From: a virus | Taxonomy: Duplodnaviria; Caudoviricetes | Strand: one strand, 5' to 3' | DNA: 34,289 nt | Virus record (IMG/VR): IMGVR_UViG_3300046778_000122 | Span: 1 to 34,289 of that record | Part shown: one piece after another, positions 3,843 through 30,408 of the stretch | Layout of the letters: every line of letters starts with the position of its first letter | Position numbering within the stretch: the first letter of the stretch is position 1 | Notes under the pieces: model-generated | Databases searched by the model: none | What the model saw: only the letters and a program-made list of their open reading frames with translations | Told to the model about the DNA's origin: nothing | Made by a program: the position numbers and the translations under genes

Positions 3843-4250
3843 ATGAAAAAAATAATCATAATTATCATCTTCCTGATGTCGGGAATGTGGTATGGCTGCG
3901 GAGGAACTCGCCAAACTGCAACGGAAAAACATTCTAATTTTGAAGTGCAAAATAGTTACTCAGAAGGCTCGAAAATAGTTTTAGGCAACACTTTTACCTA
4001 TACCCCATTTGATGCGCTAAAACCTATGAAAATCGAGGGAAAAGTTTACAATAATGTGATAGTTTCAAATGATAAAAGTAAAACTATTACTAAATGGAAA
4101 AACCGAAACATTACTAAAACAATAACTATCGACAAAACAAAAAAAACAACCCGAGAGGACAACACTTGGCTATATCTTGGGATTGTTCTAATAATTGGAT
4201 GTTTGGTTTTTTTATGGTTTTACTTGCCTAGGATTAAAACGGGCATTTAA
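3843..4250 (+). CDS. Lipoprotein with C-terminal TM; unimolecular spanin candidate
   Basis: MKK-hydrophobic-...YGC lipobox-like Cys; C-terminal WLYLGIVLIIGCLVFLWFYL; follows the endolysin. Confidence 0.6.
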   Translation: MKKIIIIIIFLMSGMWYGCGGTRQTATEKHSNFEVQNSYSEGSKIVLGNTFTYTPFDALKPMKIEGKVYNNVIVSNDKSKTITKWKNRNITKTITIDKTKKTTREDNTWLYLGIVLIIGCLVFLWFYLPRIKTGI

Positions 4251-4416
4251 ACTTTTCTGACTTGGGAATTAAATTCGAGTACTCATTTTTTATCTTTTCC
4301 GCTATTGCATCACGGCAAAACTTACCAACATCCACGTTATAAGATTTCATTTTTTGCAGTGTTTTATGTTGAATTTCTGAAATACGTATAACCTTTGTTT
4401 TTGTGTATAATTTCAT
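4234..4416 (-). CDS. Small ribbon-helix-helix-like DNA-binding protein
   Basis: 60 aa basic protein; TKVIRIS strand followed by two helices (KFCRDAIAEKI); last gene of the left arm. Confidence 0.5.
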   Translation of the reverse strand: MKLYTKTKVIRISEIQHKTLQKMKSYNVDVGKFCRDAIAEKIKNEYSNLIPKSEKFKCPF

Positions 4417-4431
4417 AATTGTAATACATTT

Positions 4432-4457
4432 GTAGCTGTTAGCAAGTAGTTATGCTC
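4432..4457 (+). other. Terminal hairpin-less recombination core (attI-like candidate)
   Basis: GTTAGCaagtaGTTATGCTC; GTTATGCTC complements GAGCATAAC at 4887-4895; no stem upstream. Confidence 0.45.
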
Positions 4458-4860
4458 CATTGCTACACTTGTGCCAAAATCGAGACGGTAGATGGATATT
4501 TAAAACATTAACAGCCTCTTTAAATAACGGTGCTACTTCTTTTGGTTTCAATCCTGCCAATCCACAACCTATTTCAGTTACAAGGAAAATCAAATTTTCA
4601 TTAGCCTTTGCAAACTCAATAAACTCATCAACAAAAGGCTTAATTTCTTCAATGGTTAATGTTCTTCTAATACTTGCATCTTTCGTCGGTATTCCATAAG
4701 TTCTACCTTGTAAGCCTTTTGCTTGTCCCCATTTTGCACCCCAACCAAGTGCAGATTTAGCAGCACCTTTTCCGTGCCTACCTGATAAGTTTGAGCCAAA
4801 CACAAAAATTTGATTTTCTGCAAGGCTGTTAATGTTTTCTGGTGTTGTTCTTTCAATCAT
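4450..4860 (-). CDS. Cassette gene: A1S_2505-like phage protein (macrodomain-like)
   Basis: IFVFGSNLSGRHGKGAA, TYGIPTK, FLVTEIGCGLAG motifs; TAA stop in the site core. Confidence 0.7.
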   Translation of the reverse strand: MIERTTPENINSLAENQIFVFGSNLSGRHGKGAAKSALGWGAKWGQAKGLQGRTYGIPTKDASIRRTLTIEEIKPFVDEFIEFAKANENLIFLVTEIGCGLAGLKPKEVAPLFKEAVNVLNIHLPSRFWHKCSNGA

Positions 4861-4888
4861 AATTTATCGTTTTAAAACCGCAACGAGA

Positions 4889-5020
4889 GCATAACAGCGT
4901 GTATATGCAAGTGGCGACTATGTGGTTTATTCAACATTTGTTCTTTTATCAAACATTCTGCATAATTGAAAGGTTAGCATTTCTAATCGCCACCTGACAT
5001 ATACACGCAAAACGTTATGC
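4889..5020. repeat. attC-like hairpin site S1
   Basis: GCATAAC a GCGTGTATATG CAAGTGGCGA ... TCGCCACCTG A CATATACACGC aaaac GTTATGC. Confidence 0.85.
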
Positions 5021-5359
5021 GTTATTGTAACGCGACTTGAACAACTTATACGTTTCATTAAAACTTCCTCCTGTTTTATCCATTTCTGCTGATAGTTTTT
5101 CGGATAATTCTAAATCTATTTCACAAACTTGAAAGAAGTCTAAAACGCAACACTCACGTTCTATATTTCTATCAAAATTTGGAATATCTTCTTCAGTTTC
5201 TTCATCAGTATCATAATACTGTGAACAACTTGCTTCTTTTGCGTAAACAGCACCATAATCGCTATCTCCAACTTCTTCGTGTCGATAAAATTCGCAATTA
5301 GAACAACAACGCATAACAGTCGTTTGGCTCAATGGCGGTATTGTTTTGTTTTTGTCCAT
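5015..5359 (-). CDS. Cassette gene: Cys-rich acidic hypothetical protein
   Basis: Likely start MDKNK at 5359 inside the S2 loop; CCSNC motif; stop in the S1 core. Confidence 0.65.
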   Translation of the reverse strand: MDKNKTIPPLSQTTVMRCCSNCEFYRHEEVGDSDYGAVYAKEASCSQYYDTDEETEEDIPNFDRNIERECCVLDFFQVCEIDLELSEKLSAEMDKTGGSFNETYKLFKSRYNNA

Positions 5360-5447
5360 AATGGTTTTTAATTTAATTATTAGTCTATTTTTGTTAGGCT
5401 TAGGTCTTGAATCGTCCGCCACTAAGCCAAGCGACAGAATGTTATGC
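5311..5447. repeat. attC-like hairpin site S2
   Basis: GCATAAC a GTCGTTTGGCT CAATGGCGG ... CCGCCACTA AGCCAAGCGAC agaat GTTATGC. Confidence 0.85.
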
Positions 5448-5837
5448 GTCAGCTTGCTCGAAATCGTGAATAGAAATAGCTAAACCTTTTTCAATTAATC
5501 CAAAAACATCAAAATGATTTTCAAACAAATAGTCAAGTTCGTTTAATCTTGTATAATTTTCGTTTTTTCGCTTAACCATCAACCCATCTGAATTGTCAAA
5601 ATCTATGTAATAATTCTCTCTAAATTTTGAGTGATGTTTACTGTTTATTTCAGAAAGTGGGTAAAGTATTGGTTTGCAGTTTTCAATTTGCCAAAACATA
5701 TTGTGCTGAAAAGAAACAGAATTTTCAGAAAGTTTATGTATTCTGCCAATTTCTATCTTATTATTAAGCATTCCTTTGAATTGGCATTTTAAACCGTAAG
5801 GAAAATAAGGAGCTAAATGTTTTAATTCTAATTTCAT
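5442..5837 (-). CDS. Cassette gene: hypothetical phage protein
   Basis: MKLELKHLAPYFPYGLK...HFDVFGLIEKGLAI; stop in the S2 core. Confidence 0.7.
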   Translation of the reverse strand: MKLELKHLAPYFPYGLKCQFKGMLNNKIEIGRIHKLSENSVSFQHNMFWQIENCKPILYPLSEINSKHHSKFRENYYIDFDNSDGLMVKRKNENYTRLNELDYLFENHFDVFGLIEKGLAISIHDFEQADA

Positions 5838-5884
5838 AATTATTGATTTAATTGATTAATATTGTTGTGGAAATAAAGCCGAAC

Positions 5885-6017
5885 GCATAACACACGCTAC
5901 AAGCAATTGGGGTTTTAGGCTCAATTTAAAGATGGTTTTGTATCAGGGAAACTTGTGTTTATCCGAAGATTTACGCTTCCTTAATCCCCAACTACTTGTA
6001 GCGCGGGAACGTTATAG
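5885..6017. repeat. attC-like hairpin site S3
   Basis: GCATAAC aca CGCTACAAG CAATTGGGG ... CCCCAACTA CTTGTAGCG cgggaac GTTATAG. Confidence 0.85.
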
Positions 6018-6023
6018 GCAAGC

Positions 6024-6057
6024 AAAAAGCCAATCATTACGGATAAAGATTGGCTTT
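6024..6057 (-). terminator. Intrinsic terminator inside cassette 4
   Basis: AAAGCCAATC (6026-6035) / GATTGGCTTT (6048-6057), T-tract on the - strand, just after the HTH gene. Confidence 0.55.
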
Positions 6058-6080
6058 GAAATTTTGAAAATTAGATGTGT

Positions 6081-6434
6081 TTAATTTTTGGGCAACTTAT
6101 CAACTCTACGACCGAGTTGTTCCATTGCTTTTTCCATTGCTTTTTCCATTGCTTTTTCCATTGCTTTTTCCATTGCTTTTTCCATTGCTAAATTCAAATC
6201 GGTTTTATCTTCTTTGTCTTCAAAGAAAAAATTAACCCCAATTGCTTTTGATATTTTTAAAAAAGTTGGTAAAGTTGGAGGAAATTTACAACTGAAAAAA
6301 CGAGAAGTATGAGCAGGAGCAATCCCACTTAATTCTGAAACTTTTAAATTTGATAGTTTTTTTTGTTGTCTGATTTCATCGAGAAGTAAAACGAGCAACA
6401 TCCATTGCTCGTTTTGGTTTGTGTTTTGTGACAT
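6081..6434 (-). CDS. XRE-family HTH regulator with AMEK repeats
   Basis: IRQQKKLSNLKVSELSGIAPAHTSRFFSCKFPPTLPTFLKISKAIG fits the Cro/C1 HTH pattern. Confidence 0.8.
   Translation of the reverse strand: MSQNTNQNEQWMLLVLLLDEIRQQKKLSNLKVSELSGIAPAHTSRFFSCKFPPTLPTFLKISKAIGVNFFFEDKEDKTDLNLAMEKAMEKAMEKAMEKAMEKAMEQLGRRVDKLPKN
6120..6189. repeat. 12-bp tandem repeat (TTCCATTGCTTT) x5.8
   Basis: Directly visible; encodes (AMEK)5-AMEQ. Confidence 0.95.
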
Positions 6435-6438
6435 ATTT

Positions 6439-6879
6439 TTATTTTATTTCAGCATCAATTAATCCAAGTTCGTAATATTGAGGGGAAATTCCACCAACGA
6501 AATAACACATTTTAACTCCGTCAATAATTTTAGAAAGATTTGATTTTTTACGACCATCAAAAGTAATTTCAATTGTTACTTTTTCAATTAAAGCTTCTTT
6601 TTCTGCTTTGATAGTTTTTGAAATTTCTAACATTTCTTTATCCAAATAAGTAGTGTCAATTCCTTCAAACATTCTTTGTCTTGCTCTTGCTCTTTCGTTT
6701 TTTCTTGCTTGACCTGATTTTGTTTGGTTGTTACAAAAATCTGAGTAAGATTCTCTTACTAATAAATAATTTTTCAATTCTCTATTTTCAGTTCTTTCTA
6801 AGATTTCAAAGTTTGTAACTTCTACTTTTTCATTTCCTTTGTTGATTTTTACTGTAGTTTTCATTTTAATTTTTGCCAT
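6439..6879 (-). CDS. Cassette gene: basic hypothetical protein
   Basis: 146 aa ORF, 4-nt gap to the HTH gene, own promoter upstream. Confidence 0.65.
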   Translation of the reverse strand: MAKIKMKTTVKINKGNEKVEVTNFEILERTENRELKNYLLVRESYSDFCNNQTKSGQARKNERARARQRMFEGIDTTYLDKEMLEISKTIKAEKEALIEKVTIEITFDGRKKSNLSKIIDGVKMCYFVGGISPQYYELGLIDAEIK

Positions 6880-6944
6880 TTGTTATGAAGTTGCTGATCT
6901 CCTTTTTAAAGTTTGCCGTGTAAATCACTTCCTTAACTCTTGTA

Positions 6945-6989
6945 CAAATATACAACTGTTATTTGGATAAATTACCATAAATGGTAATT
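6945..6989 (-). promoter_or_regulatory. Bacteroidota -7 promoter plus palindromic operator
   Basis: TATATTTG on - (6945-6952); perfect palindrome AATTACCAT-AA-ATGGTAATT (6970-6989). Confidence 0.65.
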
Positions 6990-7093
6990 ATTTTTAATTT
7001 ATTTTCACTTTTCCTTATTTTAAAAGGGTTTACAAGTGATAATAATTTTATCTAATTTCCAAAATTTCAAAGAACTTGGTGCAAATTGCCTGC

Positions 7094-7183
7094 CTATAAC
7101 CTATGCTACTGGCAATTTGCAGAACTCCCTACTATTATTCACGTTTTGTGGTGGCAAACTGCCAGTAGCATCCGCCGTTATAA
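7094..7183. repeat. attC-like hairpin site S4 (short)
   Basis: CTATAAC ct ATGCTACTGG CAATTTGC ... GCAAACTG CCAGTAGCAT ccgcc GTTATAA. Confidence 0.85.
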
Positions 7184-7546
7184 CTCATTTTGCGGAAGAG
7201 AACGTGCTAATTCTGCTTTTAATCTTGAATTTTCAGAAAGTAACTCTGCAATTCTTTTAGTAGGTTCTGCTCCAATTCCTGCACCCGCCCAAATTGATAC
7301 TATTTGCTTTTCTCCTTCGTCAGGATGAATGTAAGCAATATGTGTCATCATATGCCTATTGTCCGTTGCGGCTTTCATTATCATTACTAATAAATCAGAA
7401 CACATTTTAAATGTACTTTCTTTAAGGGTGTCAGGTTTTTTGAATGCCCAAATGAATAATTTAAAAGCATTTGATAACCGATAATAAAAACGAGGCATAA
7501 CATCGTGTATAAGAGATTGCTTATTTGGTTTTGTATCTGAATTCAT
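7178..7546 (-). CDS. Cassette gene: hypothetical protein
   Basis: Starts in the S5 loop; stop in the S4 core. Confidence 0.65.
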   Translation of the reverse strand: MNSDTKPNKQSLIHDVMPRFYYRLSNAFKLFIWAFKKPDTLKESTFKMCSDLLVMIMKAATDNRHMMTHIAYIHPDEGEKQIVSIWAGAGIGAEPTKRIAELLSENSRLKAELARSLPQNEL

Positions 7547-7628
7547 AATTTTTGAATTTAATGATTAGTAATTTTTGGAAGTATCGGTTTCAATCGGCGC
7601 AACCTCCCATACACGCCGTCCGTTATAC
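7495..7628. repeat. attC-like hairpin site S5
   Basis: GCATAAC at CGTGTAT AAGAGATTGC ... GCAACCTCCC ATACACG ccgtcc GTTATAC. Confidence 0.8.
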
Positions 7629-7634
7629 CTAATG

Positions 7635-7862
7635 CTACGAACCGAACTCAAAGAAATCGACATCTCCTTTTTGTTTTGTAATTTTTTTGTATTCCAAAAT
7701 GTTGACATTGTTTTTATTGATTTTGTCAGCAACAAGCGTAATGCTTTTAACTGTATCGTGATCAAGCGTTCCACGTCTAACATCCATCAATACACCAGTA
7801 AGCATTTCATTTAATTGCTTTGCGTTTTTTACTTCAAAATTCAAATCTCTTTTAGCTTCCAT
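7635..7862 (-). CDS. Small helical hypothetical protein
   Basis: 75 aa ORF; same position after a CxxC protein as 9479-9736. Confidence 0.6.
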   Translation of the reverse strand: MEAKRDLNFEVKNAKQLNEMLTGVLMDVRRGTLDHDTVKSITLVADKINKNNVNILEYKKITKQKGDVDFFEFGS

Positions 7863-7872
7863 AATTTTTGTT

Positions 7873-8519
7873 TTAAATTGTTTTTAAATTGTTTAATTCT
7901 CTTCGTAATTGTATTGTTAATCTTTTGAAATCTATCATTTCTTTTGGTGCTTCTTTTACTTTTGCCTTTAAGGTCAAAGCAATATACGCATCGGTTAAAT
8001 TGACAATTCCACTTTTTCTAAGTTTTTCTTTTGGCACAAAATCAACATCACCATAATCATACTTTCGTTTTATTTGACTTATAATTTTTCTGCAATCAAT
8101 TCTATATTGCTCATAGTTTGTAAAAACATAACCATCTTTTATTTTTTTCTTATAACGCCTTGAACTCCTTTTGGAAGATGTGAAATTTCTTTTACGAATG
8201 TTCTAGTTTCTGAATATTGTTTTTTCCAATTTTCTCTATAATCCGAAACATCACAATTCATTTCTTTGCATCTTTTTTTAATTCTATTCGCCTCTCCTTT
8301 TTTATTATTACAACTTTTGCATATTGCCCTGAATGAATGATAAATTGCTAATCCACTTTTATTTTGTTGTTTAATTACTTTTGCAAAAAAATAATCTTCT
8401 GTTTTTGGAAACTCCAAATTACAACACGTACATTTTTTAAGAACAAAAGCACTAGGTATAACACTCGTTTGGCAAGATTGGGTTTCGGGCTTAATTTGAT
8501 GTTGGTCTTGTACTTTCAT
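7873..8519 (-). pseudogene. Zn-finger (CxxC...CxxC) protein split by a frameshift at an A7 tract
   Basis: 8139-8519 stops right after AGA AAA AAA; the -1 frame stays open to 7873 and encodes LTDAYIALTLK...PKEMIDFKR, resembling the C-terminus of 9723-10115. Confidence 0.7.
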
Positions 8520-8586
8520 TTTTTAGTCTTAAATTTAATTATTCGGGTTTATTTTTCCCAACCTCGCCAAGTTGCAAACGTTACAG
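8456..8586. repeat. attC-like hairpin site S6
   Basis: GTATAAC actcgt TTGGCAAGATTGGG ... CCCAACCTCGCCAA gttgcaaac GTTACAG. Confidence 0.8.
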
Positions 8587-9474
8587 GAGATTTTGGGAAG
8601 CCACTAACTCGTGTTCTAAAAATCTTTTAGAAGGCATTTTTATTCTTTGGTTTTTTTCTATTTCCATTATTTCAGGTAAACAGTGTTTTTTTATAAACGC
8701 ATTTATTCTGTTTGGAGTAGTATCAAATTTTTCAGCTAATTTCACAGTCGAGAAATGGATTTTAAAATCTTCTAAAAGGGCATTTTTATCAATAACAAGC
8801 TCCATCGCTTGCATAGATAAGCTTATTGTATTTTTCCTGTTTTGGTTCTGTTTTTTATAATTTGATTTTTCCATATTATTATCATCGATATATTTTGAAA
8901 CTGTAAGCCGATGAACTTTTAATATTTTCCCGATGGCGCTTACTGAAAGTCCTAATTTTATATAATTTTTTATTCTCGATTCAAAAGGTTTTAATTTTGA
9001 TACTTCAGGATTGCTTTTTGAGCCTCTAGGTCTGCCTAAAATAACTCCTTCGGCTTTCTTTCTTGCTAATGCCTCTTTTGTCCTTTTAGAAATCATATCT
9101 CTTTCTATTTCCGCAGCTAAAGCAAACGCAAAAGCCAAAACTTTTGACTGAATATTGTCGCCTAATTCATATCCATCTTTTACCGTGTAGACTTTGCATT
9201 CCATCTTCATACAGTGCTCTAAAATTCGCATTACCATAAACAACGAACGTCCTAATCTTGATAATTCAGAAGAGATTATAGTATCTCCTTTTTTTATTTT
9301 TTTTAGAAGCTTTCCAAGCTTTCTTTCTTCCGGCTCTTTTGTTCCTGAAACGCCGTCGTCGATTATCCAACTTTCAATTTCAAAACCTAAATCTTTAGCT
9401 TTTTGAATAACTCCGTGTTTTTGATTTTCAGTATCCTGAACATCTGTGGAAACTCTTAAATATCCGTATATCAT
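8581..9474 (-). CDS. Small serine recombinase (resolvase/invertase family) with extended HTH C-terminus
   Basis: MIYGYLRVST, DDGVSG, SELSRLGRS, AEIERDMISKRTKEAL...GVILGRP; no large-integrase zinc ribbon. Confidence 0.92.
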   Translation of the reverse strand: MIYGYLRVSTDVQDTENQKHGVIQKAKDLGFEIESWIIDDGVSGTKEPEERKLGKLLKKIKKGDTIISSELSRLGRSLFMVMRILEHCMKMECKVYTVKDGYELGDNIQSKVLAFAFALAAEIERDMISKRTKEALARKKAEGVILGRPRGSKSNPEVSKLKPFESRIKNYIKLGLSVSAIGKILKVHRLTVSKYIDDNNMEKSNYKKQNQNRKNTISLSMQAMELVIDKNALLEDFKIHFSTVKLAEKFDTTPNRINAFIKKHCLPEIMEIEKNQRIKMPSKRFLEHELVASQNLL

Positions 9475-9478
9475 AATG

Positions 9479-9736
9479 TTAGTTCTTTAATTGTTTTGGC
9501 TTAACGGTATCGATTTCAGTAGGTAAATCTTTTGCGTCTATTTCTCCTTTGGCAATTAATTTTAAAGCATCCATAGAAATTTTATTGATTTCAATAATAT
9601 TTACAGCTATTTCTCCCATAGCTTTAGCTCGCTTCATTTCTATTCCAAATTGTTCAGGAGAAAGTTCTTCATCATTCAGCCTTTCCATCTGTTCGAAAAG
9701 ATGATTGTTTAAATCTGATAGTTTATTTTTTGCCAT
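9479..9736 (-). CDS. Conserved small phage protein (KNKLSDLNNHLFEQMERL type)
   Basis: Recognisable N-terminal motif; overlaps the upstream gene. Confidence 0.7.
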   Translation of the reverse strand: MAKNKLSDLNNHLFEQMERLNDEELSPEQFGIEMKRAKAMGEIAVNIIEINKISMDALKLIAKGEIDAKDLPTEIDTVKPKQLKN

Positions 9737-10115
9737 TTTTAAGCTTTTTAATTATCCTACTTGTTAATATTTTGGTTCTTTTAGCTTCAATAATTTCAGG
9801 AGTTGAACGCATATTTTTATTAGATTCTCCTTTTAAAGTTTGTTTTAATTTATTCAAAACATATCTATCTGATAGTCTATCACGTTGTTCTTTATCGTTG
9901 TTTTTTTTCCAATCTTTTCGTTCTGTATTTTGGTAATTCAGAATTTTTACTTTGTTTTTTTTATAATGTTCTTTTGCTCGTTGATTTGCATTTTTTTGAG
10001 CACAAGGGATACAATAATTACCTAATCTGTATTTTTGTCTTGATTTAGAAAAATATCTATGGTAATCTTCGATTGGTTTTTCTATTTTACAAATAGGACA
10101 AACTTTACTTTCCAT
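9723..10115 (-). CDS. Basic Zn-finger protein
   Basis: CPIC...CIPC pairs, Lys/Arg rich. Confidence 0.65.
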   Translation of the reverse strand: MESKVCPICKIEKPIEDYHRYFSKSRQKYRLGNYCIPCAQKNANQRAKEHYKKNKVKILNYQNTERKDWKKNNDKEQRDRLSDRYVLNKLKQTLKGESNKNMRSTPEIIEAKRTKILTSRIIKKLKNGKK

Positions 10116-10169
10116 TACTTTAAAATATTAATTGGTAAAATACCTCGTCCTTTGTTCCTTTAAAATTAC

Positions 10170-10394
10170 TCATAATGCTTTCAATTTATTAATTACTAAA
10201 TAATTTCTATTGTCTTCATTCGGTTGCTCTAAAATCTCGATACATTCGGTAATACCTTTTTTGTACTTTTCAATCTTAGATAAAAGCTCTTGATTCCATT
10301 CTTGTTGTTCTTCAAGTTCGGTATGTGGCTCGCGTTCTATTTCCTTGATGTTTGCGGGATGTTTCGGATTGTGTTCGTCGTGAGTGTCTAACAT
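10170..10394 (-). CDS. Hypothetical protein
   Basis: Tightly packed in the leftward operon. Confidence 0.55.
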   Translation of the reverse strand: MLDTHDEHNPKHPANIKEIEREPHTELEEQQEWNQELLSKIEKYKKGITECIEILEQPNEDNRNYLVINKLKAL

Positions 10395-10399
10395 AATTT

Positions 10400-10606
10400 C
10401 TATTGATTAAGTGCAACAATTCTAAAAGCATTTACCATTCGTTCGGTATCTTTAATATAAACATTTCCCATTTTCTTCATCCATTCGTAGAATCTTAGAA
10501 CGTCGGATTCATCTTTTGGCGGATTAATTACGTTTTTCGATAGCGTTACAGCTAAGTTGTGTTCAAAAATTAATTGTTTCATTGCGTGTGATGCGATTGG
10601 TTTCAT
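10400..10606 (-). CDS. Hypothetical protein
   Basis: ATGA overlap with the upstream gene. Confidence 0.55.
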   Translation of the reverse strand: MKPIASHAMKQLIFEHNLAVTLSKNVINPPKDESDVLRFYEWMKKMGNVYIKDTERMVNAFRIVALNQ

Positions 10607-10785
10607 AAAAATTTTTCTTTTAATTTTGTTAATACTAAATCTTGGTGTTCAGCAGGTATTGACCAGAACGAACCCATCCAGTGGTTATAGATTGTTCTTG
10701 CTCCCGTTCCAGTAAGTTCTGATATTTCAGAACAAAATGCTTTTTTAGCTTTTAGCTTTCTGTACAATGTTTTGATTTCTTCCAT
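10603..10785 (-). CDS. Cro-like small HTH protein
   Basis: Likely start MEEIK; EISELTGTGARTIYNHW is HTH-like; first gene after the leftward promoter. Confidence 0.5.
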   Translation of the reverse strand: MEEIKTLYRKLKAKKAFCSEISELTGTGARTIYNHWMGSFWSIPAEHQDLVLTKLKEKFL

Positions 10786-10811
10786 AGTTATTTTAGTTTT
10801 AAATTGTTTAG

Positions 10812-10918
10812 CAAATGTATGAATAATATTTGGATAAATAACCACCACAAGCGTAATTTAGAATCAGAATAAATTAGAGTGGTGGTGGTTATTTATATTG
10901 AAATAATTTGTATATTTG
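10812..10918. promoter_or_regulatory. Divergent promoter pair with 15-bp inverted repeat
   Basis: TACATTTG on - (10812-10819), TATATTTG on + (10911-10918); ATAAATAACCACCAC (10834-10848) / GTGGTGGTTATTTAT (10882-10896). Confidence 0.7.
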
Positions 10919-10951
10919 TTAAAACTTTAAAATTTAACCTAAAACCTAAAA

Positions 10952-10979
10952 CGGTAATAGCGCAAAATTGCTGTTATAG
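10952..10979. repeat. Orphan attC-like half-site (GTTA side)
   Basis: cggtaaTagcgcaaaattgct GTTATAG; invariant T at -15 from GTTA. Confidence 0.5.
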
Positions 10980-11005
10980 TTTGTGGTTTTCAAAACTGAA
11001 TATTT

Positions 11006-11404
11006 ATGCCTTACAAAAAGCAAAGACAAAATGTTTACGATAAATACAAAGGTCATTGTGCTTATTGCGGAAAGCAAATTGCAATAAAAGATATGCAAAT
11101 TGACCACATTATCCCACAATTAAATTACGAATGGATTTTCAAGAATAAAATATTGAAAATGATTCCTGAATTTCTAAATCATTTAACTGAAAAAGATGTA
11201 CATAATATTGACAACCTAAACCCAGCCTGTAGAGTTTGTAATAAATGGAAATCAGCCTATCATTTGGAATTATTTAGAAGCGAAATTCAAGAACAAACTA
11301 AAAGACTTCAATTAAGAAGTTCGAATTATAGAATGGCTAAATTATACGGATTAGTTTCTGAAAGTGATGTGAAAGTAAAATTTCATTTTGAAAACCAAAC
11401 GTAA
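11006..11404 (+). CDS. HNH endonuclease
   Basis: CAYCG, DHIIP, NLNPACRVCNKWK. Confidence 0.88.
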   Translation: MPYKKQRQNVYDKYKGHCAYCGKQIAIKDMQIDHIIPQLNYEWIFKNKILKMIPEFLNHLTEKDVHNIDNLNPACRVCNKWKSAYHLELFRSEIQEQTKRLQLRSSNYRMAKLYGLVSESDVKVKFHFENQT

Positions 11405-11410
11405 TATTGC

Positions 11411-11443
11411 TTGTAACATCCTGTGGCTTTGTCGTCGTTGCCG
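11411..11443. repeat. Orphan attC-like half-site (TAAC side)
   Basis: TTGTAAC atcctgtggctttgtcgtcgttgccg directly after the HNH stop; no partner arm downstream. Confidence 0.5.
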
Positions 11444-11476
11444 AAAAATAAGACCTAATTTTTAAATTTAAAAACA

Positions 11477-11719
11477 ATGAATACAACTGCAACTTCAGAA
11501 CAATTAAGAAAAGCAAAAGAAGATTTTTTAAAAAGAACTGAACCATTTATGAATGAATTAGCAAAATTAGCTCAATTAAAAAAACCTATTTTACAATATG
11601 ATTTGACAACTAATTTTTATTCTTTTAAATTTGAAAAAGACACTAAAGGAGAGGAAAATTTAAAAAAGATAATAAGCGATATTAGAGATGATATTTCGGA
11701 AAATTTAGATATGTATTAA
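11477..11719 (+). CDS. Hypothetical protein
   Basis: 80 aa ORF between the half-site and S7. Confidence 0.6.
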   Translation: MNTTATSEQLRKAKEDFLKRTEPFMNELAKLAQLKKPILQYDLTTNFYSFKFEKDTKGEENLKKIISDIRDDISENLDMY

Positions 11720-11736
11720 GTTGCTCAATAGCTGAC

Positions 11737-11866
11737 GCATAACGGGAAAGATTGTCGTAGTTGGGATAAAAGAAAAACTAATAATTAAATTTAAAACAAA
11801 TAATTCAGATGAAAAACAATGTAAAAATTAAAGACAATACCCAATCACTACAATCGTGTGTTAGTG
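11737..11866. repeat. attC-like hairpin site S7 (inverted relative to the left arm)
   Basis: GCATAAC gggaaa GATTGTCGTAGTTGGG ... CCCAATCACTACAATC gtgt GTTAGTG. Confidence 0.8.
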
Positions 11867-12327
11867 TTTCGGTTACGGATTTAAGAATAGGTAATTGGAT
11901 TATGGATAGAGGAAATAAAGCGTGGCAAATTGATTGCTGGGAACATAGTACAAAAGTAGCATCTAAAGAACCGATTATTGGGATTTGTAATTTTACTAAA
12001 AAACCAATTCACGGACATCCATTAACAGAAGAAGTTAACTTTTTAAAACCAATACCGCTAACAGAAGAGTGGTTATTGAAGTTTGGGTTTAAACAAAAAC
12101 CGATAAATGGGTTTGAGATAAATTATTTTACAGATTGCAAGGAATCAGCAGAGAAAATGGGAATATTAATTAATTTATGCTCTAATAGATGCGCAATACT
12201 TGATACCGATACAGACGAACAAAGTGCTATGACTTCAAAGATAATTTATTATGTTCATCAATTGCAAAACATATACTTCGCTTTGACAGGTTCGGAATTG
12301 CAGATTGGTAATTTAACTGAACACTAA
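11809..12327 (+). CDS. Cassette gene: conserved Bacteroidota phage hypothetical protein
   Basis: DLRIGNW...PIPLTEEWLLKFGF...VHQLQNIYFALTG; starts in the S7 loop, stop in the S8 core. Confidence 0.75.
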   Translation: MKNNVKIKDNTQSLQSCVSVSVTDLRIGNWIMDRGNKAWQIDCWEHSTKVASKEPIIGICNFTKKPIHGHPLTEEVNFLKPIPLTEEWLLKFGFKQKPINGFEINYFTDCKESAEKMGILINLCSNRCAILDTDTDEQSAMTSKIIYYVHQLQNIYFALTGSELQIGNLTEH

Positions 12328-12455
12328 CGATCGGTGCTTTGCGAGGTTTTTCAGCACGAGAAACGAAAGCCTTTCGGAGTAGCAAAAACAAACCAAGTAC
12401 AAAACCAACTTTAAAGTTTGCCTTAAACCCCAATTGCGCCAAACCGCTGTTGTGC
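12322..12455. repeat. Degenerate/hybrid attC-like site S8
   Basis: CACTAAC gatcggtgctttgcg ... caaTtgcgccaaaccgct GTTGTGC; same length class (134 bp), arms pair poorly. Confidence 0.6.
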
Positions 12456-12491
12456 GTTCGGTTTTCTCTTTACAAATTAAAAAATATTATT

Positions 12492-12728
12492 ATGAAATTA
12501 ATTGATAAATTATTACACTGTCCAGACGAAAATGGTTGGACAAATCCAAATATTACTAGGTCTGAAAATTTAGAAAAAATAGCAGAAGATTTCGCTGTTG
12601 AATTTTCAAAATGGTTAAGAAAAAATACTGCTCAAACTAAAGGTGGTTCTTACAAACTTTTTAATGATTTTCAGAAATACAATTTAACCGAATTAGTTCA
12701 AATATTTAAAAACCAAAAAAATATTTAA
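12492..12728 (+). CDS. Hypothetical protein
   Basis: Likely start MKLIDK after an AT-rich leader. Confidence 0.55.
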   Translation: MKLIDKLLHCPDENGWTNPNITRSENLEKIAEDFAVEFSKWLRKNTAQTKGGSYKLFNDFQKYNLTELVQIFKNQKNI

Positions 12729-12730
12729 TT

Positions 12731-12889
12731 ATGAAAATAGAAGACGTTACAAATTTACTCGCAAACAGAATTAACCAACCACATTATGTAAAAGATTGGT
12801 TAGAAAAATTTTACAATCAAGGTTTTCAAGATGCAAAAAAATTAACTTTCGGATTATTACAAATCTTACTGACACAAAACAATTATTAA
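12731..12889 (+). CDS. Small hypothetical protein (52 aa, not in the ORF track)
   Basis: MKIEDVTNLLANRINQPHYVKDWLEKFYNQGFQDAK...; 2 nt after the previous stop. Confidence 0.45.
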   Translation: MKIEDVTNLLANRINQPHYVKDWLEKFYNQGFQDAKKLTFGLLQILLTQNNY

Positions 12890-12901
12890 ATTTAACCTAA
12901 A

Positions 12902-12930
12902 GCCTGAATAGCGGTTAGCGTATGTTACTG
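12902..12930. repeat. Orphan attC-like half-site (GTTA side)
   Basis: GTTACTGGCTGTGTT (12924-12938) complements AACATAGCCAGTAAC (13313-13327) at 14/15. Confidence 0.65.
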
Positions 12931-12954
12931 GCTGTGTTTTTAAAATCAAACATT

Positions 12955-13314
12955 ATGGAATTAAGACAATTGAAAAACCTTTTTGAACAAATGGAATCAG
13001 GAAAAGTATTAGATTACAAATTAAGCGAGCCTTTTTCTTGGAGAGGTATTTATGCTGAATGTGCTTTTGAAATATTAAAAGAAAGTTCTACTAAAAAAGA
13101 AAATTTAGAGCAAATAAAAAAAGCATTGAAAGAAGAATTTGAAGGTTATAAAGGTGGAGATTTTAGATATGATTTAGATACCGAAGTTCATTTTGAAACT
13201 GACTATGGAAGCTATACTGATGGCGGATATAGTAAAAGACTTATTGAAGAAATAAAAAGAGAAAAAGCATACGATTCTTTCGAGGAAGAACTCGTTAATC
13301 TGATATTTCTGTAA
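12955..13314 (+). CDS. Cassette gene: acidic hypothetical protein
   Basis: Likely start MELRQ; PFSWRGIY and FEGYKGGDF motifs. Confidence 0.7.
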   Translation: MELRQLKNLFEQMESGKVLDYKLSEPFSWRGIYAECAFEILKESSTKKENLEQIKKALKEEFEGYKGGDFRYDLDTEVHFETDYGSYTDGGYSKRLIEEIKREKAYDSFEEELVNLIFL

Positions 13315-13320
13315 CATAGC

Positions 13321-13454
13321 CAGTAACGTTATGTAGCCTTGTGCTGGTGGCAAGATTCAAGATCAATGCCAACAAAAACAAAACAATAATTACGACTATC
13401 CGAGTCTTTTCGGACACAAAACCAACTGCCACTAGCTCAAGGCTACTATTATGC
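13321..13454. repeat. attC-like hairpin site S9
   Basis: CAGTAAC gttat GTAGCCTTGTGCTGGTGGCA ... TGCCACTAGCTCAAGGCTAC t ATTATGC (G>A in the core). Confidence 0.8.
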
Positions 13455-13613
13455 CTAGTGCTTTTAAACTACAAATTATGTATTATAAAATTGAAAACAA
13501 AGAATGTGACATTAGTTGAAATTTATCAAAAAAACGAATTTATAACCGTTCCAAATTGCAAAAATTTTGAAGATTTAAAGCAATTATGCAGATTGTTTTT
13601 GTAAATTAGCAGA

Positions 13614-13692
13614 GTCGTAGCACTACCGACAGGAAAATTTAAGTCTTGACAGACCGAGAGCCCCTAACCGATAGTAGTGCATTGGTTGGGGT
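13614..13692 (+). promoter_or_regulatory. Structured 5' leader (two hairpins with complementary loops)
   Basis: GCACTAC (13620-13626) complements GTAGTGC (13674-13680) in the loop of CCCCTAACCGAT/ATTGGTTGGGG. Confidence 0.5.
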
Positions 13693-13709
13693 TTTTAAAT
13701 TTTATTATT

Positions 13710-14183
13710 ATGAGTAAATCAAAAAAAATGTTTCAAGAAATTCAAAACGAATTATTCGAAACGAAAAATCAAGTTTTTGAAGGCGAATTGTCAAATATTG
13801 ACGGTTTAATTAAAATGCGTAAAGCAAAAAAAGAAGCCGAAACTATTTTGGAAATTGTGAAAGATTTTGAAAATGAAAGGCTTTATGAAATCGCAACCGA
13901 GACCGAGGCAAACGATGGCAAATACCACGGTTATGAAATCAAACAGGTAGCAGGTCGTGAATTGTTCAGTTTTAAAAATGTACCTCAAATTGTCGAATTG
14001 GATTCTAATAAAAAAACACTGGAAGACAAATTTAAAACAGCATTTAAAGGCGTAATTAAAGGCGTTGTTCAAACTACGTTAATTGATGGGGTTACGCATT
14101 GGATTGACGAAAACGGAGAAGTTCAACCGCTTCCTGAACTAAATATCGGAAAGTCTTTTTTAACTGTAAAAGAACCGAAATAA
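13710..14183 (+). CDS. Hypothetical replication/recombination-module protein
   Basis: Likely start MSKSKK; directly upstream of the SSB-like gene. Confidence 0.7.
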   Translation: MSKSKKMFQEIQNELFETKNQVFEGELSNIDGLIKMRKAKKEAETILEIVKDFENERLYEIATETEANDGKYHGYEIKQVAGRELFSFKNVPQIVELDSNKKTLEDKFKTAFKGVIKGVVQTTLIDGVTHWIDENGEVQPLPELNIGKSFLTVKEPK

Positions 14184-14215
14184 AAGGGTAAGGACTTCGC
14201 CCTTTCTTGAAGTCC
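14183..14215 (+). promoter_or_regulatory. H-type RNA pseudoknot candidate
   Basis: GGGT (14186-14189)/GCCC (14199-14202) crossed by GGACTTC (14192-14198)/GAAGTCC (14209-14215). Confidence 0.55.
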
Positions 14216-14235
14216 GATAAATAAATATATAAATT

Positions 14236-14898
14236 ATGGCAATTAATGCAAAATCAACAAGCAACGAACCGAGAGAACTTATTCCAGCAGGAAATTATGT
14301 AGCAAGATGTTACAAGATGATTGAACTCGGCACGATTCAAGAGGAATTTAAAGGAGTTCCGAAAATGCAACACAAAGTTTGGATTGAATGGGAATTACCC
14401 AACGAACTTAAAATTTTTAATCCTGAAAAAGGGGAACAACCTTTATCAAAAGGTAAGGAGTATACGCTTTCATTAGCTGATAAATCTAATTTAAGACGAG
14501 ACCTCAACAGTTGGAGAGGAAAAGATTTTACGCCACAAGAAGCCGATAATTTCGATATTACCAAATTATTAGGCGTGCCTTGTATGTTGAATATTATTCA
14601 CGCCTCAGGAAAAACTAATCCTGAAAAAAAATACGACAATATAAGCTCTATTTCTCCTTTACCAAAAGGTTTTGAATGTCCAAAACAAATAAACGAAACT
14701 TTTGTTTTCGAGTTTGAAAACTACGACCAAGCGAAATTTGAAAGTTTACCACAGTTTCTGAAAGACAAAATAATCACTTCTAATGAATACAAAATCATTC
14801 ACGGTGGCGAAGTCAAGGAAAACGCTTTGCCGAGTGCAGTCGATACTTATTTAGGCAAAGAAACACCTCTTGAAGATGATGAAGAACTAGCTTTTTAA
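14236..14898 (+). CDS. Putative ssDNA-binding protein (NGO0469/DUF669-like)
   Basis: IPAGNYVARCY...IELGT, KSNLRRDLNSWRG, FDITKLLGVPCML; acidic tail EDDEELAF. Confidence 0.65.
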   Translation: MAINAKSTSNEPRELIPAGNYVARCYKMIELGTIQEEFKGVPKMQHKVWIEWELPNELKIFNPEKGEQPLSKGKEYTLSLADKSNLRRDLNSWRGKDFTPQEADNFDITKLLGVPCMLNIIHASGKTNPEKKYDNISSISPLPKGFECPKQINETFVFEFENYDQAKFESLPQFLKDKIITSNEYKIIHGGEVKENALPSAVDTYLGKETPLEDDEELAF

Positions 14899-15230: not shown

Positions 15231-17573
15231 ATGGATTATAATTTTTCTGTTTTCAAAGAACTTCTTAAATCTAAAGAAGTACCTTATCTTGTTGATTTGA
15301 CAAAAATTGTCAAAAGAATAAAACAAGGAAGTTCTAAGCCAATTATTGACCTCGTCAGGGCAGGACAAAAAGATTTAAAAAATACATTGCCCTGCATTGT
15401 ATTTGGCGGACAATTTTCTGAACGAAACGGAAATAGTTTGGTAGAACATTCAGGTCTTATGTGTGTTGATTTCGACAAATACCCGAACGATGACACGATG
15501 ATTGAGCACCGAAAATTATTAGAAAAAAATCCACATTTTATTTTACTTTTCACTTCGCCAAGTGGAAACGGTACTAAAGGAGTAGTTCGTATTCCAAAAG
15601 CTACAAAAGAAACACATCCTAAATATTTTTCTGCTTTTCAAAAACAGTTCGATTTTGACTATTGGGACAAATCGTGTTCAAACGTTGATAGGGTGTGTTT
15701 TGAAAGTTTTGACCCAGAAATTTACGTAAATGAAAATGCAGTAATTTTTGAACCTCAACTAATTGACACAGGTTATTCTAACCACGAAAAAGTGGCTATT
15801 ATTCCAATTACTGACGAAGATAAAATTATTGATAAAATAATGAATTTTGGATGGAAAAAAGATTTTGTCGAAGGAGAAAGAAATGCTTTTGTTTTTGATT
15901 TGGCTGGATCTTTTTGCGAATATGGAATAACCCAAAGTACAGCCGAGGGTTATATTTTTAATAATGTTGTAATCGGTAATTTTTCAGAAAATGAAACAAT
16001 AACCACTATAAAGTCTGCGTACAAAAAAAGACAATTTAATTCAAAATATTTTGAAGATTATAAAAAAATAGATAACGTAAAAGCCGATTTAAAAAAAGGA
16101 AAAGAAGCCGTTTTAAAACTTCATAAAATTTCGGAAGAAACTTTCAACGAAATAAAAGAAGTTCAAGAGCACGAGGATTTTTGGTACTATACCTATGATA
16201 AAAATGGAAAGGAAAAATTAAATATGGATGCTTTGAAATATAAGTTTTTTCTTGAAAGAAATGGGTTTAAAAAGCACTATCCAAACGATAGCCAAAAACC
16301 AACTTGGGTATTTATTCAGTCAAATAAAGTTAAAATTACAAGTGTTGAAATAATCAAAGATTTTGTCCTGGATTATTTAATGAAAAAAAAAGAATATGAT
16401 GTTTGGAATTATTGCGCTAAATATCAAAATTTATTCGCAGAAAATTTTCTTTTGATGTTAGAAAGTATCGAGTTAAAGATGCTGACAGATACTAGAAGTA
16501 CTTCTTATATTGCTTTTAAAAATGGGGTTTTGGAGGTTAAAAAAGATGAAATAAAATTAGTGGATTATATCGATATTGATTTCTATATTTGGCACGATCA
16601 TATTTTAGATCGGGATTTCTCGCCTTTAATTATTTTTGAAAATGATTACAAGAAATTCATAAATAATATTTCAAACGGAGAGCCAACGGCTATTGAATGC
16701 GCAGTTGGCTATCTTATTTCTACTTATAAAAATCGTTCAAATAATAAAGCAATAATTTTGAACGATGAAGTTATTTCGGAAAATCCAGAGGGGGGAACCG
16801 GAAAAGGAGTTTTTGTTCAAGGTATTTCTCAAATAAGAAAGACTTCGCTAATCGATGGAAAATTATTTGACGGTAAAAAATCTTTTCCATACCAAACGGT
16901 AAGTTTGGACACAAAAATTTTGGTATTTGATGATGTCGTTAAAAATTTCAATTTTGAAGAAAAATTTAGTTTAGTTACCGAAGGATTGACTTTAGAGAGA
17001 AAAAATAAAGATGCCATAAAACTAAATGTTCACGATAGCCCAAAACTCATAATATCAACTAATTACGCTATTCGTGGCGAGGGAAACAGCCACGACAGGC
17101 GAAGATATGAATTAGAAATAGCACAGTATTACGGGAAAGATTTGACTCCTGAAGATGAATTTGGCAGGCAATTATTTGATGATTGGAATGCTGACGATTA
17201 TTTGAAATTTGACAACTATGTTGTTTATTGTTTGCAATTATTTTTATCAACTGGACTAATAAAACAAAACGCAAAAAATATCAAAATGCGTAAATTTATC
17301 GCTGAAACATCGATGGAATTTTACGAATTTATCAAAGAAAAAGATAACGTGCCAAGAAATTCAAGAAATGATAAAAAGGTTTATTTTGATAAATTTTTAG
17401 ATGAATACCCCGATTTTAAAAAATGGCTAACTCGCAAGAAATTTAACATTTGGGTACAAAAATTCTGTTCATTTATGAAATACGAATATTTGTCAGATAA
17501 TTCCAATGGTCTACAATGGTTTGAAATTAAAACAGACGATTCTCAAGATGTTGAAGATGAACTAATTTTTTAA
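15231..17573 (+). CDS. Primase (BT4734/VirE-N type) - PriCT - SF3 helicase
   Basis: HSGLMCVDFD, FTSPSGNGTK, EGERNAFVF, Walker A GGTGKG, Walker B VFDD, IISTNY. Confidence 0.85.
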   Translation: MDYNFSVFKELLKSKEVPYLVDLTKIVKRIKQGSSKPIIDLVRAGQKDLKNTLPCIVFGGQFSERNGNSLVEHSGLMCVDFDKYPNDDTMIEHRKLLEKNPHFILLFTSPSGNGTKGVVRIPKATKETHPKYFSAFQKQFDFDYWDKSCSNVDRVCFESFDPEIYVNENAVIFEPQLIDTGYSNHEKVAIIPITDEDKIIDKIMNFGWKKDFVEGERNAFVFDLAGSFCEYGITQSTAEGYIFNNVVIGNFSENETITTIKSAYKKRQFNSKYFEDYKKIDNVKADLKKGKEAVLKLHKISEETFNEIKEVQEHEDFWYYTYDKNGKEKLNMDALKYKFFLERNGFKKHYPNDSQKPTWVFIQSNKVKITSVEIIKDFVLDYLMKKKEYDVWNYCAKYQNLFAENFLLMLESIELKMLTDTRSTSYIAFKNGVLEVKKDEIKLVDYIDIDFYIWHDHILDRDFSPLIIFENDYKKFINNISNGEPTAIECAVGYLISTYKNRSNNKAIILNDEVISENPEGGTGKGVFVQGISQIRKTSLIDGKLFDGKKSFPYQTVSLDTKILVFDDVVKNFNFEEKFSLVTEGLTLERKNKDAIKLNVHDSPKLIISTNYAIRGEGNSHDRRRYELEIAQYYGKDLTPEDEFGRQLFDDWNADDYLKFDNYVVYCLQLFLSTGLIKQNAKNIKMRKFIAETSMEFYEFIKEKDNVPRNSRNDKKVYFDKFLDEYPDFKKWLTRKKFNIWVQKFCSFMKYEYLSDNSNGLQWFEIKTDDSQDVEDELIF

Positions 17574-17576
17574 AAT

Positions 17577-29376: not shown

Positions 29377-30408
29377 ATGGCAGTAACTTATACAGGTACA
29401 AAGACCGAAGCTGGCGAGTACGCAGAAATTGTTCAGGAAATCTACGCAGATTCCCCGACCTTTCGAGGTGAAACAATCGAAATTGTAGAGGGTCACAAAT
29501 CAGGAATGGACATTTACGAAAGTTCAGCAGAAATCACTTTTTCGGCAGCTAACTATGGAGCGGTAACCGCTGACAACGTGGCTTTGAAAACTCAAAAATC
29601 CAAAGTAGATTTAGCGACATTTAATGTTGAAGGGGTTATAGACGAAAGCTCTTTAAAAGGAACTCGTTTTGAAAAATCAATGAAAGCAGGGGCGTTCAAT
29701 GTCGTTTCAGATGAGTTTGATCAAAAAGTTTTGATTCAAGTGCAGCCAGCCGTTGGTGCAAAATTAGAGGCTTGGGTTTGGGATGGAGCTACGGCTGCCA
29801 CAAAAGTGGCTATCGCAGCCTTAACACCGGGCGCAGGTCAAGGAAGTATAACGGCAGCGGCTCAAACAAAAGTTGCAGCAATGGCAACTACATTGTTTGA
29901 TTCAATTCCTACTACAATGCTTTATAATGCATCACAATCCAAAGCAGCACCGGGTGCAGGATTGGGAGATTATTTAAAAGTAACAGGAACAACCGTTACG
30001 ACTTCAAATATTGTTGCGGAATATGTAAAAATCTACAATGCAATTCCAGACGATGTTTTGGTAAAAACGGGAGACGATGCGCCGATTATTTATGCTCCTA
30101 AAGGAGATTACAAATTAATCAAATCTGTAAACAGAGTTCAAGGGGCTGCGCTTCAAGAAAACTTCGTTGGAAATTCATTTAACGACATGTATTTCAATGA
30201 CGTAAAAATCATTTTTGTTGACTTAGTAGGTTTCAGAATTGCCGCTCAAAAAACAAACTTGAAATTGATTATGGATTTGTTGTCTGATTCTTCTCAATTG
30301 ATTATCGAAAAAGAAGCCAACGCTTCGACTCGAAGAATCTTGAAATTAATCAACACAATGAACACTTGGGTTGTTAAGCAAAAATGGAACGTTCTTTACA
30401 ACGGATAA
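29377..30408 (+). CDS. Major capsid protein
   Basis: 343 aa, directly after the protease/scaffold and followed by a terminator. Confidence 0.7.
   Translation: MAVTYTGTKTEAGEYAEIVQEIYADSPTFRGETIEIVEGHKSGMDIYESSAEITFSAANYGAVTADNVALKTQKSKVDLATFNVEGVIDESSLKGTRFEKSMKAGAFNVVSDEFDQKVLIQVQPAVGAKLEAWVWDGATAATKVAIAALTPGAGQGSITAAAQTKVAAMATTLFDSIPTTMLYNASQSKAAPGAGLGDYLKVTGTTVTTSNIVAEYVKIYNAIPDDVLVKTGDDAPIIYAPKGDYKLIKSVNRVQGAALQENFVGNSFNDMYFNDVKIIFVDLVGFRIAAQKTNLKLIMDLLSDSSQLIIEKEANASTRRILKLINTMNTWVVKQKWNVLYNG

Follow-up and report, generated by a model that had tools for sequence, protein, structure and literature searches.

Private matched ends mark the cassettes of a barely described integron-like gene-swapping system in Bacteroidota and their phages

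Integrons are the closest described counterpart of the system considered here, an array of hairpin-separated gene cassettes and a second, decayed one between positions 4,418 and 13,451 of IMG/VR record IMGVR_UViG_3300046778_000122. This is a complete virus record of 34,289 nucleotides (nt) with a 127-nt terminal repeat, and its full length is called the window throughout. As far as the accessible portions of two integron accounts go (PMC5027507, PMC2095811), the window's site family shares with integrons a cassette array behind a hairpin-less first site, an AAC/GTT core with crossover at G^TT, R box matching between a cassette's own ends, a favoured folded bottom strand with a G·T skew, and a related tyrosine recombinase. 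Other traits set the two apart. The spacer is 5–6 nt on each integron arm in the accessible part of PMC5027507 and 1 nt/5 nt in the window's family; the conserved extrahelical G/T that those accounts place near L'' gives way to two fixed G·T pairs, and their 7-bp R box to a 15-nt outer arm. The enzyme of the window's family is without the IntI insertion, has in hosts an N-terminus with a weak HARP-like signal and is co-oriented with the array. Integron cassette genes lie on the top strand, whereas phage cassette genes are reversed, and no intI gene stands beside the attI-like site in the window genome. The window system works like an integron and is not one.

Complete integrons are nearly absent from Bacteroidetes, according to the available part of PMC9024848. 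A second comparison is with the rAID-1 gene clusters of gut Bacteroidales, which the accessible text of bioRxiv 10.1101/471110 describes as a co-directional XerD-like recombinase, genes and repeated intergenic sites "reminiscent of integrons", with a 5' recombinase >44% identical to BF9343_RS08045 as the criterion. The enzyme of two rAID-type clusters (L237 and L238) was 38–40% identical to the host enzymes of the window's family and was also without the IntI insertion; by sequence similarity, the host-array enzyme is related to the rAID-1 recombinases. Both clusters have short TAAC-A...N5-ATTA hairpins and own-end matches of 9–10 nt. Their sites differ in measuring about 45 nt and ending in ATTA, and the pairs examined had no clear mispair at position 11 or extension over positions 12–15. 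Cargo differs as well: rAID-1 carries forward, co-directional orphan immunity genes, and the window carries small phage genes in reverse. The accessible rAID-1 text gives no site anatomy, mechanism or phage form, and its supplement may show the motif (bioRxiv 10.1101/471110).

Phage arrays have been reported by Qi et al. (2023; PMC9892861), whose accessible text describes CALINs (integrase-less clusters of at least two attC-like sites, as in the window) in virulent phages and treats them as classical attC sites. One of their phages, Polaribacter phage P12002L, carries the same site family as the window. Its P12002L_attC1 is a short site of this family (30004-30059), and its attC2 has the first GTT of the array, a hairpin-less one, as its end. 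In the same text, P12002L_attC1, cloned without its outer arm, was the sole one of six sites not recombined by IntI1, and attC2 was recombined (PMC9892861). The accessible part of that paper says nothing of the grammar of the ends, the reversal of the genes, an attI-like site or a cognate recombinase. Across the literature searched, which included few subscription papers, we found no account of a 15-nt arm, a fixed mispair or reversed phage cassettes, and this integron-like gene-swapping system of Bacteroidota and their phages is barely described.

Each of the eight window cassettes carries its own, private pair of matched ends. An earlier note on this DNA had proposed that the sequence after one GTTA complements the sequence before the next TAAC, as a signature of circular intermediates. 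The eight GTTA/TAAC motifs sit where it had placed them, and its match counts hold: 9/9 (4449/4895), 14/15 (5014/5317), 9/9 (5441/5891), 14/15 (6011/7100), 12/15 (7177/7501), 14/15 (7622/8462), 9/9 (11860/12328) and 14/15 (12924/13327). The last two pairs belong to the second array, which has the opposite orientation. The cassettes, with the strand that serves as top strand, are:

4450..5014, plus strand: cassette 1; arms 4449-4463 and 4880-4895; hairpin site 4892-5017; reversed gene 4450-4860 (PHROG 2072).
5015..5441, plus strand: cassette 2; arms 5014-5028 and 5303-5317; hairpin site 5314-5444; reversed gene 5015-5359 with its ATG within the hairpin site.
5442..6011, plus strand: cassette 3; arms 5441-5455 and 5876-5891; hairpin site 5888-6014; reversed gene 5442-5837.
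6012..7177, plus strand: cassette 4; arms 6011-6025 and 7086-7100; short hairpin site 7097-7180; two reversed genes, helix-turn-helix (HTH) 6081-6434 and 6439-6879.
7178..7622, plus strand: cassette 5; arms 7177-7191 and 7487-7501, with two extra mismatches; hairpin site 7498-7625; reversed gene 7178-7546 with its start within the hairpin site.
7623..8580, plus strand: cassette 6; arms 7622-7636 and 8448-8462; hairpin site 8459-8583; reversed open reading frames (ORFs) 7635-7862 and 8139-8519, the latter starting within the hairpin site.
11740..12328, minus strand: cassette 7; arms 12314-12328 and 11860-11875; hairpin site 11740-11863; gene 11809-12327 on the plus strand with its start within the hairpin site.
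12888..13327, minus strand: cassette 8; arms 13313-13327 and 12924-12938; gene 12955-13314 on the plus strand; just half of the hairpin remains (12888-12927).

True pairing of the ends beat all 40,319 other permutations. Over positions 5–15, with the GTTA core excluded, 68 of 88 bases matched, a value reached by the true pairing alone (mean over 40,320 pairings, 36.9). Positions 10–15 taken alone matched at 30/48 (p=0.005), and positions 16–30 were at background (29/120 against a mean of 33.8). The ends follow a common grammar of 10 bp, a mismatch at position 11 and a further 4 bp. At the mismatch the left end has A and the right end C on the top strand, which is a G·T pair on the coding strand. 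The three 9/9 pairs reach about 15 in alignments that allow one extra base before this mismatch. All ten variable positions matched in seven of the eight pairs, and eight of ten in the 7177/7501 pair. With a generic inverted-repeat finder, AT-rich pairs arising by chance drowned the signal.

The same grammar was found across phages and bacterial chromosomes. Searching with a motif of hairpin 1 gave 109 viral and at least 120 genome loci, in which our heuristic defined 122 distinct viral and 43 chromosomal adjacent-site pairs, the latter among the matches listed. At least four of positions 5–9 matched in 89 viral and 38 chromosomal pairs (shuffled means, 11.4 and 5.8); the position table was built on these, with 33 viral and 5 chromosomal pairs dropped. 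In these matched pairs, position 11 was a fixed A/G in 86/89 viral and 37/38 chromosomal cases, positions 12–14 matched at 93–100%, and background began at position 16. Without the filter, positions 12–15 gave 320 matches in viral pairs (shuffled mean 175, maximum 220) and 128 in chromosomal pairs (70, maximum 88), and the left end had A at position 11 in 120/122 and 43/43, respectively.

Classical integrons gave a different pattern. The control comprised 33 pairs from 20 regions beside TIGR02249 genes and three class 1 loci, of which 32 were chromosomal, the canonical detector having given one pair for the class 1 loci. Matching fell from 94% at position 5 to 36% at position 12; it was above chance at positions 8–10 (54/99 against 31) and at chance at positions 12–15 (32/132 against 28, p=0.22), and there was no fixed mismatch in the 33 pairs. 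The earlier note had remarked that the pairing extends to about 15 bp, beyond the canonical 7-bp R box. The arm of about 15 nt stands, and length above 7 bp alone is not unique, as classical cassettes pair at positions 8–10; the distinguishing trait is the 15-nt arm with its fixed mispair.

The hairpins suggest what the matched ends are. On the top strand, 233 of the 332 detected sites read TAAC, 1 nt, stem, then stem, 5 nt and GTT, a register that the detector favours. In 199 of these 233, inner-stem position 14 was a bottom-strand G·T with the stem in register. Counted from the cut outwards, positions 2–15 of the outer arm and the inner arm beyond a 6-nt spacer had the same profile: T second, G seventh, A tenth (the mispair) and T eleventh. 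The two profiles correlated at 0.69 over 250 sites, and at r=0.66 after removal of 119 seed-motif sites and duplicates, a value reached by 3 of 20,000 column shuffles; seven other spacers gave -0.23 to 0.27. All six left-block window sites had T as second and A as tenth base in both arms. Simple tyrosine-recombinase sites such as those of Xer/dif and Cre/lox have two inverted arms of 11–14 bp around a 6–8 nt spacer, a layout that with arms of about 14 bp and a 6-nt spacer is the one seen here. Because the outer arm mirrors the inner arm across this spacer, the matched ends are likely one of two recombinase half-sites, which would be complete on circularisation. Compared with Xer/dif and Cre/lox, the window site is likely a folded single strand, private to each cassette and read via conserved mispairs.

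In the array form, the outer half-site joins the ends of two different cassettes and is mismatched; in the circle form it is perfect. When cassettes were circularised and folded in silico, as the earlier note had proposed, the circle junction was 4–11 kcal/mol better than the array junction in 5/6 cassettes (bottom strand). The bottom strand also folded better than the top in 6/6 modelled circle junctions. Chromosomal genes lie on the other strand, yet the same G·T polarity is kept there, and with equal polarity in the viral and chromosomal sets, a protein or mRNA constraint is not its cause.

Comparison among phages shows the window units to be mobile DNA cassettes, judging from where sequence likeness begins and ends. 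L020 and L038/L085 share a 295-nt cassette at 100% identity, which starts with the G of GTT and runs up to the following GTTAT; the sequences on either side of it are unrelated. The gene of cassette 1 had relatives in 160 loci, and 18 distinct copies reached 84% identity or more over 330 nt. In 13 of these 18, likeness started exactly at G 4449, after 13 different upstream sequences; of the other five, contig ends truncated two, two had their start within the gene, one of these being armless, and the last was L337. In L337 the cargo was 95% the same, and positions 5–9 of both arms had changed as a compensating block together with another hairpin, which would fit the exchange of an arm-hairpin-arm module whose parts adjoin in the circle alone. 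On these grounds, the earlier note's view that the units are mobile DNA cassettes rather than terminators stands, with a boundary at G^TT and shuffled neighbours. Its likening to integrons holds in part, as these are not classical attC sites: spacer geometry, fixed G·T pairs, reversed genes and recombinase differ. Repeated capture or loss is suggested by further copies of the cassette 8 and cassette 1 genes, which were armless in L424 and L438 and had unrelated arms in L350. In L340 and L434, likeness to the cassette 1 gene breaks at window position 4819, where 910 nt are inserted in L340; this insert contains an ORF resembling an endonuclease and may be a homing intron.

The left end of the array is without a hairpin and adjoins a conserved gene:

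4234..4416, minus strand: 60-amino-acid gene (PHROG 25647; weak DUF6290), adjoining the insertion site and conserved in related phages.
4418..4452, plus strand: hairpin-less, attI-like insertion site, conserved in 7/7 aligned phage loci.

The 30 nt before 4449 are conserved in the 7/7 aligned loci, which diverge straight after GTTA into different cassettes. This conserved hairpin-less segment, followed by different cassettes, is an attI-like site on the phage, where crossover would fall between G4449 and T4450. The related phages L274 and L279 had no array after the lysis gene.

Gene orientation differed between phage and host cassettes. Genes were on the bottom strand in 119/122 viral pairs and on the top strand in 36/43 chromosomal pairs. 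The start codon lay in the hairpin in 47/121 viral and 5/36 chromosomal cassettes, and the stop within the far arm in 75/121 and 7/36. A tblastx comparison among 244 units found no cargo in both orientations. Window cargo consisted of small phage genes, HTH, HNH and resolvase.

Candidate recombinases were found in hosts and in some phages. Among the matches listed, 22 genome loci had at least two sites, and six of these had a co-oriented upstream tyrosine recombinase; in five of these six arrays, a hairpin-less matched GTT close behind the stop codon starts the first cassette. The XerA-type NF040815 was the best or second-best NCBIfam match of the host enzymes (197–226 bits, cut-off 220), and TIGR02249 matched in two pieces (188–214 bits, cut-off 265). 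The top fold matches were archaeal XerA and VchIntIA, and identity to IntI1 was about 30–33%. Six Bacteroidota enzymes were without the IntI insertion, about 31+10 residues present in IntI1; the accessible part of PMC2095811 describes this IntI-specific insertion (helix I2). The N-terminus forms a domain of 60–70 amino acids with weak matches to HARP in 3/23 members (best E 5.5e-5) and DUF5710 in 6/23. Its fold matches were likewise weak (UvsW, Z 4.1; MotA-C, Z 3.2), with none at Z>=5, and it had no PDB sequence match. The recombinase profile matched 25/121 genomes of one sampled order at E<=1e-100. Seven viral loci (L012, L028, L033, L037, L069, L070 and L074) had a short recombinase of 270–320 amino acids without the N-terminal domain. 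It sits where the window has the 60-amino-acid gene, and in all six of these loci that were examined it was near an array on the strand of the cassette genes, so some phages bring their own enzyme.

On plasmid FJ012881 (L240:6907-8111), tet(X3) is preceded by tnpF, which is a short homologue belonging to the recombinase family of these arrays. The tet(X3) unit has a GTTA left and a TAAC right arm, with position-11 A/G and positions 8–15 kept, followed by half a hairpin, and looks like a captured cassette of the window's system. In a Chryseobacterium plasmid array (L239:12390-13202, 15720-17825), an IS110 and a group II intron are inserted at cassette sites or close to them, and the array also has a repeated element with its own small hairpins. 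In a chromosomal array (L165:10069-11297, 13205-14433), two cassette starts are each followed closely by a copy of one insertion sequence.

We propose, with a probability of roughly 0.72, that the window holds mobile cassettes of the form G^TT, reversed gene and hairpin, whose 15-nt ends are likely one of two half-sites of a folded single-stranded site that would be complete only in the excised circle. The end grammar, the mirror symmetry of the arms, the G^TT boundary, the shuffling among phages and the hairpin-less site at 4449 are the demonstrated part of this proposal; the excised circle itself is presumed. In the proposed mechanism, the bottom (here coding) strand would fold so that both half-sites have G·T as their tenth pair; the spacer would measure 6 nt, and the strand being cut would carry a bulge of 4 nt. 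An Xer/IntI-related tyrosine recombinase from the Bacteroidota host or a co-infecting phage would cut between A and C of AAC, and excision would join the cassette's own ends into a circle with a perfect outer half-site. That half-site would favour insertion at the attI-like site over excision. The back-to-front build of the phage cassettes would serve to let phage transcription, running in the direction of the insertion site, read them, with a start codon that often lies in the hairpin.

Several observations weigh against this proposal. The complete genome has no tyrosine recombinase, with no PF00589 match at E<=1, so the enzyme is assumed to act in trans and the phage presumably borrows it. 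A site was detected within 1.5 kb downstream of only 9 of 29 recombinase genes examined, several of these loci being cut short. Cassette 5 gained nothing in fold on circularisation. Hairpins did not always travel with cargo: eight cassette 1 copies share one hairpin type, 58–66% like the window's in the five measured, and the others differ, so hairpins are usually, not always, inherited with the cargo. The sites were found by our own heuristic, and most loci were seeded by one site-1 motif. Finally, contigs of six runs, which drop rare variants, held no circle or excision joint, and none of the contig joints listed for these data lay at a cassette boundary. In run X1, which may be the sample of origin, a 34-nt contig (depth 4 against 66) has its junction precisely at 4449, with four letters that differ; a circle and another phage are indistinguishable as its source.

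Some alternatives keep the matched ends and change their role. Own-end pairing might act in the single-stranded array and, with the flanking hairpins, pre-form a four-way junction for the recombinase. The linear bottom strand offers this pairing too, and in cassette 2 the predicted fold gave probabilities of 0.28 for own-end pairing and 0.26 for the left hairpin core. Own-end pairing was 0.02 and 0.00 in the other two of three cassettes folded, however, and an arm that mirrors the inner half-site at a fixed 6-nt spacer fits a hairpin substrate, so we consider a pre-formed junction unlikely. The matched ends could instead be a passive scar of cassette genesis or palindrome correction, with movement at a core of about 7 bp as in integrons. 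Above-chance pairing of classical cassettes at positions 8–10, the block replacement of both ends in L337 and the armless genes in L424 and L438 would agree with a scar. Correction would erase the mismatch, though, and position 11 matches in just 1/89 viral and 0/38 chromosomal matched pairs, next to a position 12 that matches in 97–99%; with the mispair also mirrored in the inner arm, we judge a passive scar quite improbable. It is very unlikely that ordinary attC cassettes are being moved by a classical IntI. The invariant AAC/GTT core, the bottom-strand G·T skew, the attI-like first site and the reported recombination by IntI1 of P12002L attC2, which ends at its array's hairpin-less first GTT, speak for such movement. 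Set against them are the reported near-absence of complete integrons from Bacteroidetes (PMC9024848, accessible part), the host enzyme without an IntI insertion beside such arrays, and the failure of IntI1, in the accessible account, on P12002L_attC1, the sole tested hairpin of the window's family, whose outer arm was absent.

Other alternatives assign the repeats to different machinery. The window has a serine resolvase/invertase gene (8581-9474), and the inverted ends could be its inversion sites, as in shufflons. Inverted repeats flank each gene, this DNA-invertase-like gene abuts the array, and gene orientation is opposite in phage and host cassettes. Inversion at the core would, however, put G at the left end, where A is kept (120/122 and 43/43); no cargo pair among the 244 units was in opposite orientation; the cassette ends are private; and the resolvase had no tblastn match in the array-carrying viral loci searched. 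We regard inversion as highly improbable and read the resolvase as cargo. The hairpins as terminators or regulatory RNAs, with incidental end matches, would account for a coding strand that folds better, so that mRNA would fold too, and for the many start codons in the loop. Yet the sites lack the short GC-rich stem and U tract behind a gene that mark an intrinsic terminator, the two terminator-like matches in 4200-14000 were neither of them at a site, Rfam gave nothing at gathering score on the window and nothing at E<=1 on 4300-14000, chromosomes keep the G·T polarity with genes on the other strand, and the matched ends are hundreds of bases apart. Shuffling at exact boundaries refutes this explanation as the sole one, and we give it hardly any credence.

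The remaining features lie to the right of cassette 6:

8580..9474, minus strand: unit made of an orphan left arm (8580-8594, with A at position 11) that ends the serine resolvase/invertase gene; the matching far end was not found.
10973..11417, plus strand: chimeric unit in the second array, with an HNH gene (11006-11404) between two arms; both keep the position-11 bases, yet they are mutually unmatched.
12325..12452, minus strand: chimeric hairpin whose two arms match poorly; an orphan arm follows at 12449.
13324..13451, minus strand: hairpin site with a changed core (ATTA for GTTA on the plus strand), its cassette decayed.

From 10973 to 13451, the right-hand block forms the second, decayed array, which is oriented the other way and contains half-hairpins and chimeric ends; it has two near-intact sites against six intact ones on the left, and an attI-like site was not found in it. 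Two orphan half-hairpins, at 10930 and 12888, have their first 14 nt in common, and the left and right arrays share a cassette arm (5441 and 11730); each of these findings points to internal rearrangement.

The window codes for a terminase, portal, primase/helicase and GH19 lysin. The phage host is probably a member of Bacteroidota, since the 60-amino-acid gene has a 75% identical counterpart in Flavobacterium phage 2A, where an array of this kind follows it. A blastn search of the replication/terminase region against annotated phages gave no match, and relatives of a 220-amino-acid gene (6 loci) had no array, just three weak single matches. With small-share runs left out, the two runs with the best representation of the window were freshwater metagenomes, possibly the sample of origin. 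Within the HTH gene (6120-6180), a 12-nt tandem repeat codes for repeated AMEK, and 48 nt of this repeat are missing from contigs of runs X4 and X6. A 10-nt motif occurs at 6637, 6962 and 10829, once inverted, around the cassette 4 genes and near 10,850, where the 10829 copy lies at a divergence point; it is a possible operator for the HTH protein.

Tentatively, and with more doubt than confidence, we suggest that these arrays represent a second integron-like lineage between Xer/dif and integrons, in which folded single strands would be read via two symmetric G·T pairs by an insertion-less recombinase. Bacteroidota phages would then run their own back-to-front pool with its own attI and make new cassettes by grafting arm-plus-hairpin modules onto ordinary phage genes. 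The grafting idea arises because the same gene was seen armless, with the window's arms, and with arms and hairpin block-replaced; one gene with different arms or none gives direct access to the long-standing question of cassette genesis. Bacteroidota have been thought nearly integron-free, yet 25/121 genomes of one order have the recombinase type and many phages carry cassettes. The site offers a simple, testable model for the recombination of single-stranded hairpins by an Xer-like enzyme that has no IntI insertion, and this bears on the origin of integrons. A cultured phage with such an array exists in Flavobacterium phage 2A. Through this system, the shuffling of accessory genes in phages is connected with the immunity arrays of the rAID type in gut bacteria, and one locus hints at a possible link with the origin of tet(X3).

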